NCBI GenBank assembly: GCA_947258755.1
Contig: CAMYJO010000003.1
Span: 50,871 to 114,870, forward strand
From: an uncultured Gammaproteobacteria bacterium
GTDB taxonomy: Bacteria > Pseudomonadota > Gammaproteobacteria > JAADHQ01
Length of the DNA stretch: 64,000 bases
Direction of reading: 5' to 3'
In this document: in pieces, positions 22,768 to 24,294 of the stretch
Position numbering within the stretch: the first letter of the stretch is position 1
How the letters are laid out: each line of letters opens with the position of its first letter
Made by a program: the position numbers and the translations under genes
The notes under the pieces: model-generated
What the model saw: the letters and a program-made list of their open reading frames with translations, nothing else
Told to the model about the DNA's origin: nothing
Database searches by the model: none

Positions 22768-22783
22768 TGCAATAACTGTACCG
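22768..22783 (-). promoter_or_regulatory. Sigma54 promoter for flhA (minus strand CGGTAC-N5-TTGCA)
   Basis: The reverse complement of tgcaataactgtaccg is CGGTACAGTTATTGCA, with the GG and GC elements at the canonical 12-nt offset. It sits about 100 nt upstream of the flhA ATG. Confidence 0.55.
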
Positions 22784-22793
22784 GGATTTAATA

Positions 22794-22912
22794 GTGGCTA
22801 GTGGCTAGTGGCTAGTGGCTAGTGGCTAGTGGCTAGTGGCTAGTGGCTTGTGGCTAGTGGCTAGTGGCTAGTGGCTAGTGGCTAGTGGCTAGTGGCTAGT
22901 GGCTAGTGGCTT
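22794..22912. repeat. 17 tandem copies of heptamer GTGGCTA (two copies GTGGCTT)
   Basis: I counted the units directly at 22794-22912. The array is intergenic between flhB and flhA. Confidence 0.95.
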
Positions 22913-22913
22913 G

Positions 22914-23054
22914 TGTAGGAGCGGCCCTTGGCCGCGATAAAACTCAGACTTGTAGGGGGTTTAATAAGAATAAAGTACTTAACACTAGCTAAGTCAAACC
23001 TTTCGCTAGGTTTGTATCTCTACCTGATTATCGCGGCCAAGGGCCGCTCCTACA
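22914..23054. mobile_element. REP/BIME-like element: perfect 27-bp inverted repeats (TGTAGGAGCGGCCCTTGGCCGCGATAA) flanking an 87-bp spacer
   Basis: The left arm at 22914-22940 is the exact reverse complement of the right arm at 23028-23054. Each arm contains its own GCGGCC-ctt-GGCCGC hairpin. The ends resemble REP ...TTATC...GGCCTACA termini. Confidence 0.45.
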
Positions 23055-23117
23055 GTTAGCTTGAAAGCTATTGGCTTGGTTCGTGGTGAGCTTATACCTT
23101 GCCTAAGTTGACTTGCC

Positions 23118-23152
23118 TAGCCACTCGCCACTCGCCACTCGCCACTCGCCAC
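23118..23152. repeat. 5 tandem heptamers TAGCCAC/TCGCCAC (inverse orientation of the GTGGCTA array), abutting the flhB stop codon
   Basis: tagccac tcgccac x4 lies at 23118-23152 and is the reverse complement of GTGGCTA/GTGGCGA. Confidence 0.9.
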
Positions 23153-24294
23153 TATTTTTTACCTTTCCACATGTCATCGGGTACATCCAGATCGGTTGGC
23201 AGATCAGGCGTTTGCATGCCTGCGGAGGTCGCCTGCTTGAGTTGGTAGATATAGGCCAGGATTTGCGCCACGGCCAGATACAGGCGTGACGGTATTTCCT
23301 GCTCCAACTCAGTTGAGAAGTAAATGGCCCTGGCCAGCGGAGGTGCTGAGACGATAGGCACTTCATTTTCTGCGGCGATTTCCCTGATGCGTGCCGCCAC
23401 CAGTTCCGTTCCTTTGGCCACCAGTTTCGGTGCGCCCATCTTGCCGTCTTCATACTTCAATGCAATTGCGTAATGCGTCGGGTTGGTAATGACCACATCG
23501 GCCTTCGGCACCTCTTCCATCATGCGGCGCATAGCAGCCTCCATTTGCAGACCGCGTATTTTACTCTTGACCTCAGGACTACCTTCCGTACTCTTACGCT
23601 CTTCCTTTACTTCCTTCTTGGTCATGCGTTGCTGCTTTTTATGCTGCCAAATCTGGAAGGGAATATCGATGGCCGAAATAATAATGATCGTCGAACAGAC
23701 CGCAAGAAAATACCAGGCGGTCATCTCTGTTGTCTTCGAATATGCAGTAGCAAATTCGTAATGACCGATACGCAGGATATCATCAAACAATTTAATGATA
23801 AGCAGCGCACCCAAGCCCCCTACCAATCCCACTTTTAGCAGCGATTTGGCCAACTCCATCAAGCCCTGGGTGCCAAAAAGTTTTTTAGCTCCCTTAAGCG
23901 GGCTCATATTCGACAACTTGGGTTTGATCTTTTTAGCGGAAAAAGTAAAACCGCCAATCATCATGGGGCTAAGAAATACAGAGATGACCATCAAGCTAAT
24001 CAAGGGTGAAATCAGAATAAAGGCATCCAGTAATGTACTAAACAGGTTCTTAATTGCCATCATCGGCTCGTAGATCATACGCCGATCAATACTCAAGGAC
24101 GAGCGCACTATTTCCGCCAGGCCATCACCGATGCCACGCCCCATGGTCAACAAGCCGATTGCCGATGCCATCAGGATCAAAGTCGTGTTTAATTCACGTG
24201 ACCGCGGAACCTCCCCCTTTTGTTTCGATTCCTGCAGCCGTTTTGCGGTGGGTTCCTCACTTTTTTCTTGACCGTCTTGGTTTTCTGCAGCCAT
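23152..24294 (-). CDS. flhB: Flagellar export switch protein FlhB
   Basis: The 380-aa ORF has an N-terminus EKSEEPTAKRLQESKQKGEVPRSRE. It also has the NPTH autocleavage motif (VVITNPTHYAIAL). Confidence 0.95.
   Translation of the reverse strand: MAAENQDGQEKSEEPTAKRLQESKQKGEVPRSRELNTTLILMASAIGLLTMGRGIGDGLAEIVRSSLSIDRRMIYEPMMAIKNLFSTLLDAFILISPLISLMVISVFLSPMMIGGFTFSAKKIKPKLSNMSPLKGAKKLFGTQGLMELAKSLLKVGLVGGLGALLIIKLFDDILRIGHYEFATAYSKTTEMTAWYFLAVCSTIIIISAIDIPFQIWQHKKQQRMTKKEVKEERKSTEGSPEVKSKIRGLQMEAAMRRMMEEVPKADVVITNPTHYAIALKYEDGKMGAPKLVAKGTELVAARIREIAAENEVPIVSAPPLARAIYFSTELEQEIPSRLYLAVAQILAYIYQLKQATSAGMQTPDLPTDLDVPDDMWKGKK

Follow-up and report, generated by a model that had tools for sequence, protein, structure and literature searches.

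A heptamer palindrome with a REP dimer in its loop between flhB and flhA of an uncultured gammaproteobacterium

Several kinds of short repeats have been described in the intergenic DNA of bacteria. Repetitive extragenic palindromic sequences (REPs) with a GTAG head, the feature that defines the largest REP superfamily, typically form heads-out dimers 20-100 bp apart, and in several REP families such dimers lie inside longer palindromes (PMC3733652); these dimers (REPINs) are mobilised by RAYT/TnpA_REP proteins (PMC3337134, PMC8266576). The 7-bp repeats of Haemophilus influenzae hmw1A/hmw2A (PMC8262952, PMC2424069) and the TAAA repeats upstream of Neisseria meningitidis nadA (PMC2791445) are promoter-associated contingency repeats, and tandem TAACTGA heptamers occur between the genes of marine sulfur bacteria, cyanobacteria, and Bacteroidetes (PMC4679880). 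Here we describe a locus that touches on all of these, the 483-bp spacer between the flagellar export genes flhB and flhA in a 64,000-nt stretch of DNA (referred to as the window) from an uncultured gammaproteobacterium of the lineage JAADHQ01 (assembly GCA_947258755.1, contig CAMYJO010000003.1, positions 50,871 to 114,870). The spacer holds two arrays of 7-bp units (heptamers) facing each other as the arms of a palindrome, a pair of inverted 27-mers between them, and the sigma54-type promoter box of flhA just beyond.

We interpret the spacer as a nested composite, in which an old heptamer palindrome expanded by slippage holds a REP dimer in its loop, the flhA promoter is left untouched, and the transcript forms a hairpin at an operon boundary, and we give this interpretation a probability of about 0.45. 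The first layer is a palindrome of the form AATAG(TGGCGAG)n ... (CT[A/C]GCCA)nCTATT running from the flhB stop to 8-10 bp before the flhA sigma54 box, whose promoter-side arm has grown to 17.7 near-perfect units, presumably by replication slippage or unequal exchange. The second layer is a heads-out GTAG REP dimer that entered the palindrome loop, presumably by means of a RAYT transposase encoded elsewhere. The flhA promoter, that is the box and the blocks downstream of it, lies wholly downstream of the repeats and is unaffected by them; array length would drift without any required value, and the composite occupies only the freely varying part of the flhB-flhA junction. The transcript leaving flhB would fold into a very stable compound hairpin (the DNA could form a cruciform), which may serve as a 3'-end barrier or stabiliser of the fliL-flhB message and separate this message from the FleQ/sigma54-driven flhA-flhF-fleN unit. 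Our best guess is a structural hairpin at an operon boundary, tolerated in a permissive spacer.

The flagellar genes on the minus strand follow the order fliR, flhB, flhA, flhF, fleN by their Pfam matches, with the flhB stop at 23152-23154 and the flhA start at 22668. In coding-strand direction, the junction consists of the following features.

23152-24294, minus strand: flhB coding sequence (Pfam PF01312, E 4.7e-123; open reading frame (ORF) list); the outermost part of the inverted heptamer array runs into its TAG stop at 23152-23154
23118-23156, minus strand: 5' palindrome arm, coding strand AATAG(TGGCGAG)4TGGCTAG, equal to (GTGGCGA)4 GTGGCTA (4.9 copies at 100% in Tandem Repeats Finder (TRF); also found as an inverted repeat)
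23055-23117, no strand: 63-nt unique segment within the palindrome loop, without significant similarity to any fetched locus
23028-23054, minus strand: REP arm with a GTAG head and a GCGGCC-CTT-GGCCGC hairpin, 26 of its 27 nt being the same in loci L106 and L117
22941-23027, no strand: 87-nt spacer of the REP dimer, without similarity elsewhere among the fetched loci
22914-22940, plus strand: REP arm TGTAGGAGCGGCCCTTGGCCGCGATAA, exact reverse complement of 23028-23054, the GTAG heads of the two arms pointing outward (called an HH dimer in PMC3733652)
between the second REP arm and the first TAGCCAC units, coding strand: CAAGCCAC
22792-22915, minus strand: 3' palindrome arm, expanded, coding strand (CTAGCCA)x17.7 with two CAAGCCA variants (TRF)
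22784-22793, minus strand: linker TATTAAATCC from the last CCAC to the sigma54 box, with a GCCAC-TATT terminus common to phage elements
22768-22783, minus strand: sigma54-type -24/-12 box CGGTACAGTTATTGCA of flhA, two mismatches to TGGCAC-N5-TTGCA
22738-22755, minus strand: block AGTGACCGGTTTTTGACG 3' of the sigma54 box, a candidate activator site, the same in the window and in loci L120 and L121
20575-22668, minus strand: flhA coding sequence (Pfam PF00771, E 1.8e-272)

Repeats were identified with TRF and a repeat finder, and chance levels were taken from pattern searches with shuffled controls. The initial annotation of this DNA had reported a 17-unit GTGGCTA array with two GTGGCTT variants, and TRF and the pattern search return the same coordinates: the 3' arm has period 7, 17.7 copies, 97% matches, and a score of 234 at 22792-22915, its GTGGCTA phase begins at 22794, and the variants lie at 22843-22849 and 22906-22912. 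Its description of a 27-mer, an 87-nt gap, and the exact reverse complement, each 27-mer with an inner GCGGCC-N3-GGCCGC, likewise holds in the sequence, as does that of the following 63 nt and the inverted array of one TAGCCAC (23118-23124) and four TCGCCAC units (23125-23152) ending on the flhB stop. The 3' arm also contains a perfect 63-bp (9-unit) higher-order duplication (22792-22852 = 22855-22915) and is followed by UAUUAAAUCC. The 14-mer GTGGCTAGTGGCTA has 20 matches with at most two mismatches, against 0.29 expected by chance, and no second period-7 array of at least three units exists elsewhere in the window; by chance, none of the features described so far would be expected. The inverted repeat between both arrays (22790-22829 vs. 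23117-23156) spans 40 nt at 90% complementarity and runs 5 nt past the heptamers (AATAG/CTATT). Its arms are unequal, with 5 vs. 17.7 units, and its 291-nt loop contains the REP dimer, which adjoins the inner end of the long 3' arm.

Comparison with relatives gives the heptamers an age. Loci were fetched at FlhB identities of 89, 82, 81, 79, 78, 74, 68, and 67%, and all relatives with an FlhB identity of at least 78% and a contig spanning the spacer carry heptamers related to T[C/A]GCCAC. The distance from their last unit to the sigma54 box is 9-10 nt, except in L121, where a deletion is present and it is 4 nt. The arrays of the individual lineages are as follows.

L120: (TCGCCAC)2(TCGCTAC)4
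L121: (TCGCCAC)3.4, beside a second heptamer family
L122: TCGCCAC TAGCCCC TCGCCAC, 3.6 units
L125: (ACTAGCC)4.6, then decayed units
L206: degenerate CTCGCCA CTAGTTC CTCTCCA
L214: CAC TAG CCAC TAG CCA across the flhB stop, the contig ending 69 nt after the stop

The second family in L121 is an unrelated array, (TAAGTCA/TAGGTCA) x7.6, directly after the flhB stop at 6157-6209. Across these lineages (FlhB 78-89% identity) the number of units ranges from 3.4 to 17.7, each lineage having its own homogenised variant, and the relatives' arrays are 21-45 nt long. The initial annotation had called the heptamers slippage-prone, and this spread agrees with it; slippage and unequal exchange may well lie behind the lineage-specific units and copy numbers. 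Three independent assemblies of the L122 lineage are identical to one another, as are paired assemblies of four other short-array lineages, and two related contigs (P0003 and P0004) end within the spacer, 69-185 nt after flhB. Arrays are absent from the three outgroups (FlhB 67-74%), which keep the sigma54 box, and none of the 80 loci among the matches listed at 41-48% FlhB identity has a clear period-7 array in the spacer, the sole candidate being a weak period-14 row of 2.1 copies in L183. The nearest named FlhB relatives, Sedimenticola and Thiohalobacter, are about 50% identical. In a neighbour-joining tree, the array-bearing lineages fall in two sister clades. Since the array is present in all relatives at or above 78% identity whose contigs span the spacer and in none of the outgroups, it arose once.

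The 27-mer pair has a different history. Its arms are 100% complementary and 87 nt apart with the GTAG heads outside; each arm starts with TGTAGGAGC, the terminal GTAG lying outside the stem, and holds a GCGGCC-N3-GGCCGC stem-loop. A scan of one genome per species with the pattern TAGGAGCGGCC-N3-GGCCGCGAT found the REP core in at least 119 loci of other Gammaproteobacteria. Among the matches listed, the carriers include Pseudomonas oryzihabitans and relatives, Microbulbifer, Woeseiaceae, Thiohalomonadaceae, Lysobacterales, and others, the core often forms inverted pairs, of either orientation, and G stands before TAGG in 162 of 163 core copies although the pattern left that base free, hence a GTAG head. 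Matches of 26/27 nt to the whole 27-mer come from one Woeseiaceae and one Hydrocarboniphaga assembly. With their GTAG head, GC-rich hairpin, extragenic site, and heads-out arrangement, the 27-mers therefore behave as GTAG-type REPs in a REPIN-like dimer, judged by sequence features, which bears out the initial annotation on this point.

As in published REPINs (PMC3733652), the 27-nt unit in the window has a GTAG head that stays unpaired, then GA, then a GC-rich stem-loop, identical units are inverted with their heads outside in extragenic DNA between co-directional operons, near-identical units (26/27 nt) occur in other Gammaproteobacteria, and the dimer is inserted in an existing palindrome as in some REP families. 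The window differs in having one dimer per 64 kb, with no further copy of the 27-mer even at three mismatches (chance expectation 0), in a host G+C content of about 48% vs. mostly G+C-rich carriers of this REP type, and in its dimer spacer of 87 nt, which falls within the published 20-100 bp, whereas heads-out pairs of this sequence type elsewhere have spacers of 18-28 nt among the matches listed. A search for a site of integration host factor (IHF) in this spacer gave one weak match with one mismatch (22969-22981), not meaningful in view of 89 window-wide matches vs. 70 expected.

The REP pair is absent from all compared relatives of the locus and is therefore an insertion specific to the window's lineage. 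The palindrome of the window has a counterpart without the pair: in L122, which belongs to the sister clade, an inverted repeat TAGTAGCGAGTTGCTAGG / CCTAGTCACTCGCCACTA (imperfect complement) has its arms 46 nt apart and its 5' arm starting from the flhB stop, so that a palindrome of the same topology as that in the window, and with nearly the same 5' arm, exists without REPs. The palindrome therefore came first, the REP dimer then entered the loop, and the 3' arm grew last. The heptamers, and with them the inverted arrangement, are thus older than the REP pair. The initial annotation had also raised the possibility that the whole 360-bp unit is a mobile element. Because relatives carry heptamers but no REP, and because L122 has inverted heptamers with a 46-nt gap, the unit is not one mobile element.

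REPs have reached this junction elsewhere too. The Pseudomonas-like loci L185 and L201, distant relatives by FlhB, carry GTAG REP dimers in their flhB-flhA spacers, so REPs have entered this junction repeatedly and their presence is no surprise. In L185 there are two dimers (four REPs) at 4150-4350, about 50 nt upstream of a sigma54-like TGGAAAGCTTCTTGCA, and in L201 an intrinsic terminator is followed by a perfect heads-out REP dimer at 1400-1480.

The flhA promoter is the constant part of the spacer. Its box CGGTACAGTTATTGCA sits 8-10 nt from the heptamer array and is followed by 99 nt and the flhA ATG on the coding strand; transcription is predicted to start near 22757. The initial annotation had placed a candidate sigma54 box beside the array, and nine lineages indeed have [C/G]GGTACA-N4-TTGCA, each time 112-115 nt ahead of the flhA ATG, while the stretch from the flhB stop to the box varies from 91 to 368 nt and is unalignable. 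Downstream of the box, TTTTTGAC[G/A] is kept more widely across the relatives than the whole block AGTGACCGGTTTTTGACG, and the sister sub-clade has a FleQ-box-like GACGTTAAATTGAC, to be compared with the published FleQ consensus GTCaNTAAAtTGAC (PMC6120874); the window's own sub-clade has no FleQ-box-like match of this type. No element 5' of the array is conserved among the compared lineages, all conserved blocks lying downstream of it, and no FleQ box was found upstream of the array, the best match in the window, which has four mismatches and is not conserved, lying in the 63-nt segment. Two further proposals of the initial annotation thereby lose their ground, namely that FleQ or other activator sites lie where the array is and that a change in copy number would alter activator-promoter geometry. 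A scan of 22400-23400 gave no sigma70 promoter, and no intrinsic terminator (GC-rich hairpin with a U-tract) on either strand.

The comparison with Pseudomonas points the same way. There flhA-flhF-fleN is set apart from fliL...flhB with its own -24/-12 box, as in the window, according to PMC3424551 and PMC6120874 (citing Jyot 2002 and Baraquet & Harwood 2016). For Pseudomonas aeruginosa flhA, the same papers, citing Jyot 2002, describe a FleQ site located atypically downstream of the RpoN site and FleQ acting close to the promoter without looping (PMC6120874, PMC3424551). The window likewise encodes FleQ (39183-40607), FleR (36467-37825), FleS, and FliA nearby and has conserved sequence 3' of the box. 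It differs in that its box deviates from consensus at two positions (CGGTAC). The fliL operon, the fliD operon, and a third flagellar operon in the window have perfect-consensus sigma54 boxes (28728-28743, 43706-43721, and 63545-63560, all minus strand), and a perfect IHF consensus is located about 30 nt upstream of the fliL box (28771-28783). In more distant loci (L126-L205, FlhB 41-48% identical, among the matches listed), only a short spacer without a sigma54 box lies between flhB and flhA (median about 38 nt, with ORFs called roughly), so that not every flhA gene has a promoter of its own.

As RNA, the coding strand of 22760-23170 is predicted to fold at -172 kcal/mol (z = -10.5). An Rfam search of the window returned sub-threshold matches to plant and animal microRNA precursors only (MIR847, 23 bits vs. 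a cut-off of 184), which are typical of any long hairpin. In the outgroup locus L208, which has no heptamers, a hairpin spans the whole spacer (4138-4273, z = -2.0), with a purine-rich 5' arm near the flhB stop and a pyrimidine-rich 3' arm ending just before the sigma54 box.

A number of observations weigh against the composite interpretation. Of the seven array-bearing lineages, the window and L122 alone have an inverted arm, and a hairpin function is therefore not conserved in the clade; the array-only spacers of the relatives fold worse than shuffled sequence (z +1.1 to +2.1). The palindrome arms pair with one mismatch per unit, and the hairpin has no U-tract and so lacks the signature of an intrinsic terminator. 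There is only one REP dimer in the 64 kb, and the 28 window ORFs scanned, including ten non-flagellar ones, gave no match to a Y1 transposase (RAYT). The array length in the assembled contig could be the product of mis-assembly. Finally, the motif persists across clades next to unalignable flanking spacer, which may reflect selection acting on the motif itself, by way of a binding protein or Rho loading, and not tolerance.

The heptamers are not confined to this clade. In a viral contig collection, we found 53 stretches of (TCGCCAC)3 and 10 of (TAGCCAC)3, against 14 and 11 for the composition-matched controls (TCCGCAC)3 and (TGCCCAC)3, and 107 for the known repeat family (TAACTGA)3. Counting at least two inverted units within 110 nt of an array as an inverted partner, such a partner occurs upstream in 18 of 57 distinct T[C/A]GCCAC arrays and downstream in none, compared with 0/27 for the two control heptamers and 2/84 for TAACTGA; the controls comprised only two heptamers, and relatedness among the phages makes many of the copies non-independent. 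At least 17 distinct viral elements can be written as [T/G]AGTGGC(GAGTGGC)n followed, after a loop of 17-58 nt, by (GCCACTC)nGCCACT[A/C], and TATT is the commonest 3' flank of phage arrays (9/62). At least nine arrays occur in the 40.6-kb contig IMGVR_UViG_3300032160_000019. The C-rich strand is sense ahead of a nearby start in 20 of 64 phage arrays and in the opposite orientation in 5 of 64, as judged by rough ORF calling.

The clearest case is L257 (IMGVR_UViG_3300027824_000259), a phage structural module encoding a major head protein and tail proteins. It has two 83-nt copies (4 units, 27 nt, and 4 units) that lie 8-15 nt past the stop of one gene and 17-27 nt before the start of the next, with RNA folding at -54 and -79 kcal/mol (z = -3.8 and -13). 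At 3985-4100, the upstream stop-codon region CCUGAUCCC pairs with the downstream ribosome-binding region GGGAUCAUG. As the element brackets a stop and a start, it could couple the translation of both genes. No Rfam family above threshold was obtained for the phage hairpins, which gave microRNA-precursor matches below the cut-off like those of the window, no isolated-phage relative of the L257 capsid was found, and a full-text literature search for four 14-mers of the arrays returned no paper.

The palindrome in the window shares the phage form: its coding strand reads (GAGTGGC)4 TAGTGGC ... (GCCACTA)17, with the unit [T/G]AGTGGC / GCCACT[C/A], the same polarity (G-rich arm first on either strand), and AATAG...CTATT ends, and it likewise begins just past an upstream stop between co-directional genes. 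The phage copies, by contrast, are compact, measuring about 83 nt with 4+4 units and loops of 17-58 nt; each genome has several of them, and the next start follows after 1-37 nt. The window has a single copy with asymmetric arms and a 291-nt loop containing a REP dimer, and this copy is followed by a promoter and a 5' untranslated region (UTR). The L122 palindrome, with its 46-nt loop, is compact like the phage copies. TAACTGA repeats (PMC4679880) are similar in being intergenic tandem heptamers oriented to the downstream gene, with strain differences in 7-nt steps, and the phage TCGCCAC arrays abut start codons as they do. They differ in unit sequence, in the near absence of an inverted partner (2/84, vs. 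about a third of T[C/A]GCCAC arrays), and in number, with hundreds per genome vs. a single locus per 11-64 kb in the window's clade. Besides the nucleotide arrays, 156 tiny predicted proteins (among P0121-P0240) consist of (VASGEWR)n, the translation of (GTGGCGA)n, with about 10-18 units, in assemblies of Photobacterium, Vibrio brasiliensis, Shewanella sediminis, Isosphaeraceae, Planctomycetes, Chloroflexi, and Bacteroidetes; counted without a control heptapeptide, they are suggestive of long (GTGGCGA)n arrays.

Neither the REP part of the locus nor the expanded repeat is new in kind. The heptamer-array palindrome, which has defined ends and polarity and recurs in phages, seems by contrast to be a variant of the small intergenic palindromic repeats that has not been described before. 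A bolder and rather doubtful extension is that AATAG(TGGCGAG)n-loop-(CTCGCCA)nCTATT represents an undescribed intergenic family of phages and chromosomes, mobile or recognised by a protein, which may long have been kept at the flhB/flhA boundary to gate read-through or access to the sigma54 promoter, slippage of the arms then providing heritable tuning of export-gate expression.

Several other explanations were weighed against the composite with its boundary hairpin. The plainest is that the heptamers and the REP dimer are neutral or selfish clutter, persisting in an unconstrained stretch with no role as DNA or RNA. The unalignable 91-368 nt of upstream spacer, the loss of the inverted arm in most lineages, the mismatched arms, and the independent landings of REP dimers in the same spacer of Pseudomonas-like genomes all agree with it. 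Yet compact phage genomes contain the heptamer again, with its polarity and termini unchanged, in a fixed 83-nt geometry and several copies per contig, an inverted partner is never seen for the composition-matched control heptamers, and the motif lies beside the promoter in every sampled lineage of two sister clades save L214, where the contig ends; we regard clutter as possible, though on the unlikely side. A tunable or phase-variable promoter repeat, in which gain and loss of 7-bp units alters flhA transcription and reversibly varies the export gate, has a precedent in the hmw1A repeats, which grade expression (PMC8262952). The window array resembles hmw1A/hmw2A in being a perfect heptamer array of comparable length by a promoter, and resembles these and the nadA repeats in being non-coding, with a unit that is not a multiple of three and a copy number that varies by lineage. 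It is long and near-perfect (17.7 units, 97%) as expected of a contingency locus, keeps its end 8-10 bp ahead of the -24 element throughout the lineages, and shows lineage-homogenised units from 3.4 to 17.7 copies and a 63-bp block duplication; the contigs P0003 and P0004 end 69-185 nt past flhB as if long repeats broke the assemblies. Its placement, however, is not of a kind that makes expression depend on repeat length, such as inside an ORF, between -35 and -10, or between a promoter and an upstream site that it requires. It begins beyond about -35 of a sigma54 promoter, nothing conserved is found farther upstream whose distance or helical phase could matter, and the conserved blocks, together with the FleQ-box-like site of one sub-clade, are downstream of the box. 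Moreover, the independent assemblies of L122 and four other lineages are identical (all short arrays), the phage look-alikes adjoin start codons and not promoters, and, unlike the published cases, this one concerns an environmental uncultured organism and an export gate, not a surface antigen. Such tuning therefore seems improbable to us.

A protein-binding array, in which a small DNA- or RNA-binding protein would coat the heptamers and make them an operator or roadblock bordering the sigma54 promoter, would have a parallel in plasmid pSM19035, whose omega repressor binds heptad arrays. It would account for an NNGCCAC core kept across clades when its flanks are not, for the strict polarity (inverted partner upstream in 18/57 and never downstream), for the C-rich strand being mostly sense ahead of starts (20 vs. 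5 of 64), and for the defined element termini. We nonetheless consider it quite unlikely: no ribbon-helix-helix or similar ORF was recognised among the window ORFs scanned, positions 2 and 6 of the unit are not constant even within one array, 17 units are far beyond any relative's need, and the orientation counts come from rough ORF calling on related, non-independent phages. Still less likely is a Rho-loading (rut-like) tract, in which the C-rich, G-poor, unstructured array in the flhB 3' UTR would recruit Rho and so end transcription of the upstream operon shortly ahead of the flhA promoter. On the coding strand, C makes up 22-43% and G 8-18% of the 60 nt leading up to the box in each of the nine lineages, shuffled controls are more structured than array-only spacers, and an intrinsic terminator is lacking, but the inverted arm sequesters part of the tract in the window and in L122, the 21-45 nt of the relatives' arrays are short for a rut site, and the evidence is purely compositional. 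That every lineage keeps the C-rich array beside the promoter, and that it has more C than G, gives some weight to the tuning, binding-protein, and Rho readings alike. A single non-autonomous transposon spanning 22790-23156, with heptamer terminal inverted repeats and a TA target duplication, can hardly be maintained. It could claim the 40-nt, 90% terminal inverted repeat including AATAG/CTATT and the TA at both ends; relatives, however, have the heptamers and the AAATAG / ACT[A/G]TT flanks but lack what lies between, the interior occurs once in the window and in none of the fetched loci, and TA is the phase of the [T/G]AGTGGC unit, with GA or TC at many phage copies. Considered as a miniature inverted-repeat transposable element, the 367-bp unit has the terminal inverted repeats, but fails on multiple copies and on the target-site duplication and empty-site test.

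Other features of the window concern the flagellum more generally. A 2593-aa ORF (45420-53201, minus strand) between the flagellin genes at 44235-45095 and 53388-54281 contains two family-2 glycosyltransferase regions, a family-1 glycosyltransferase, an FkbM methyltransferase, and TPR repeats, and could represent a very large enzyme for flagellin modification. FliK-like (Flg_hook) genes occur twice, at 6254-8371 (plus strand) and 29086-30810 (minus strand); the former contains a 117-nt tandem repeat of 2.4 copies (7205-7482) and is followed by a small ORF (8368-8724, plus strand) with the FlhB C-terminal domain only. The FliN-like gene at 26643-27119 has an in-frame 54-nt tandem duplication of 1.9 copies (26977-27081).

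Taken as a nested composite, the flhB-flhA spacer is layered intergenic DNA of an ordinary sort, in which an old slippage-prone repeat expanded, a REP dimer invaded, and the adjacent promoter stayed fixed. Less ordinary is the occurrence of the same heptamer palindromes in several unrelated phage contigs, sometimes at least nine per 40 kb. If these palindromes form a real family, they would join REPs and the unexplained TAACTGA-type heptamers as a class of small intergenic elements, and the flhB-flhA copy would be a chromosomal case with flagellar gene expression as its readout.

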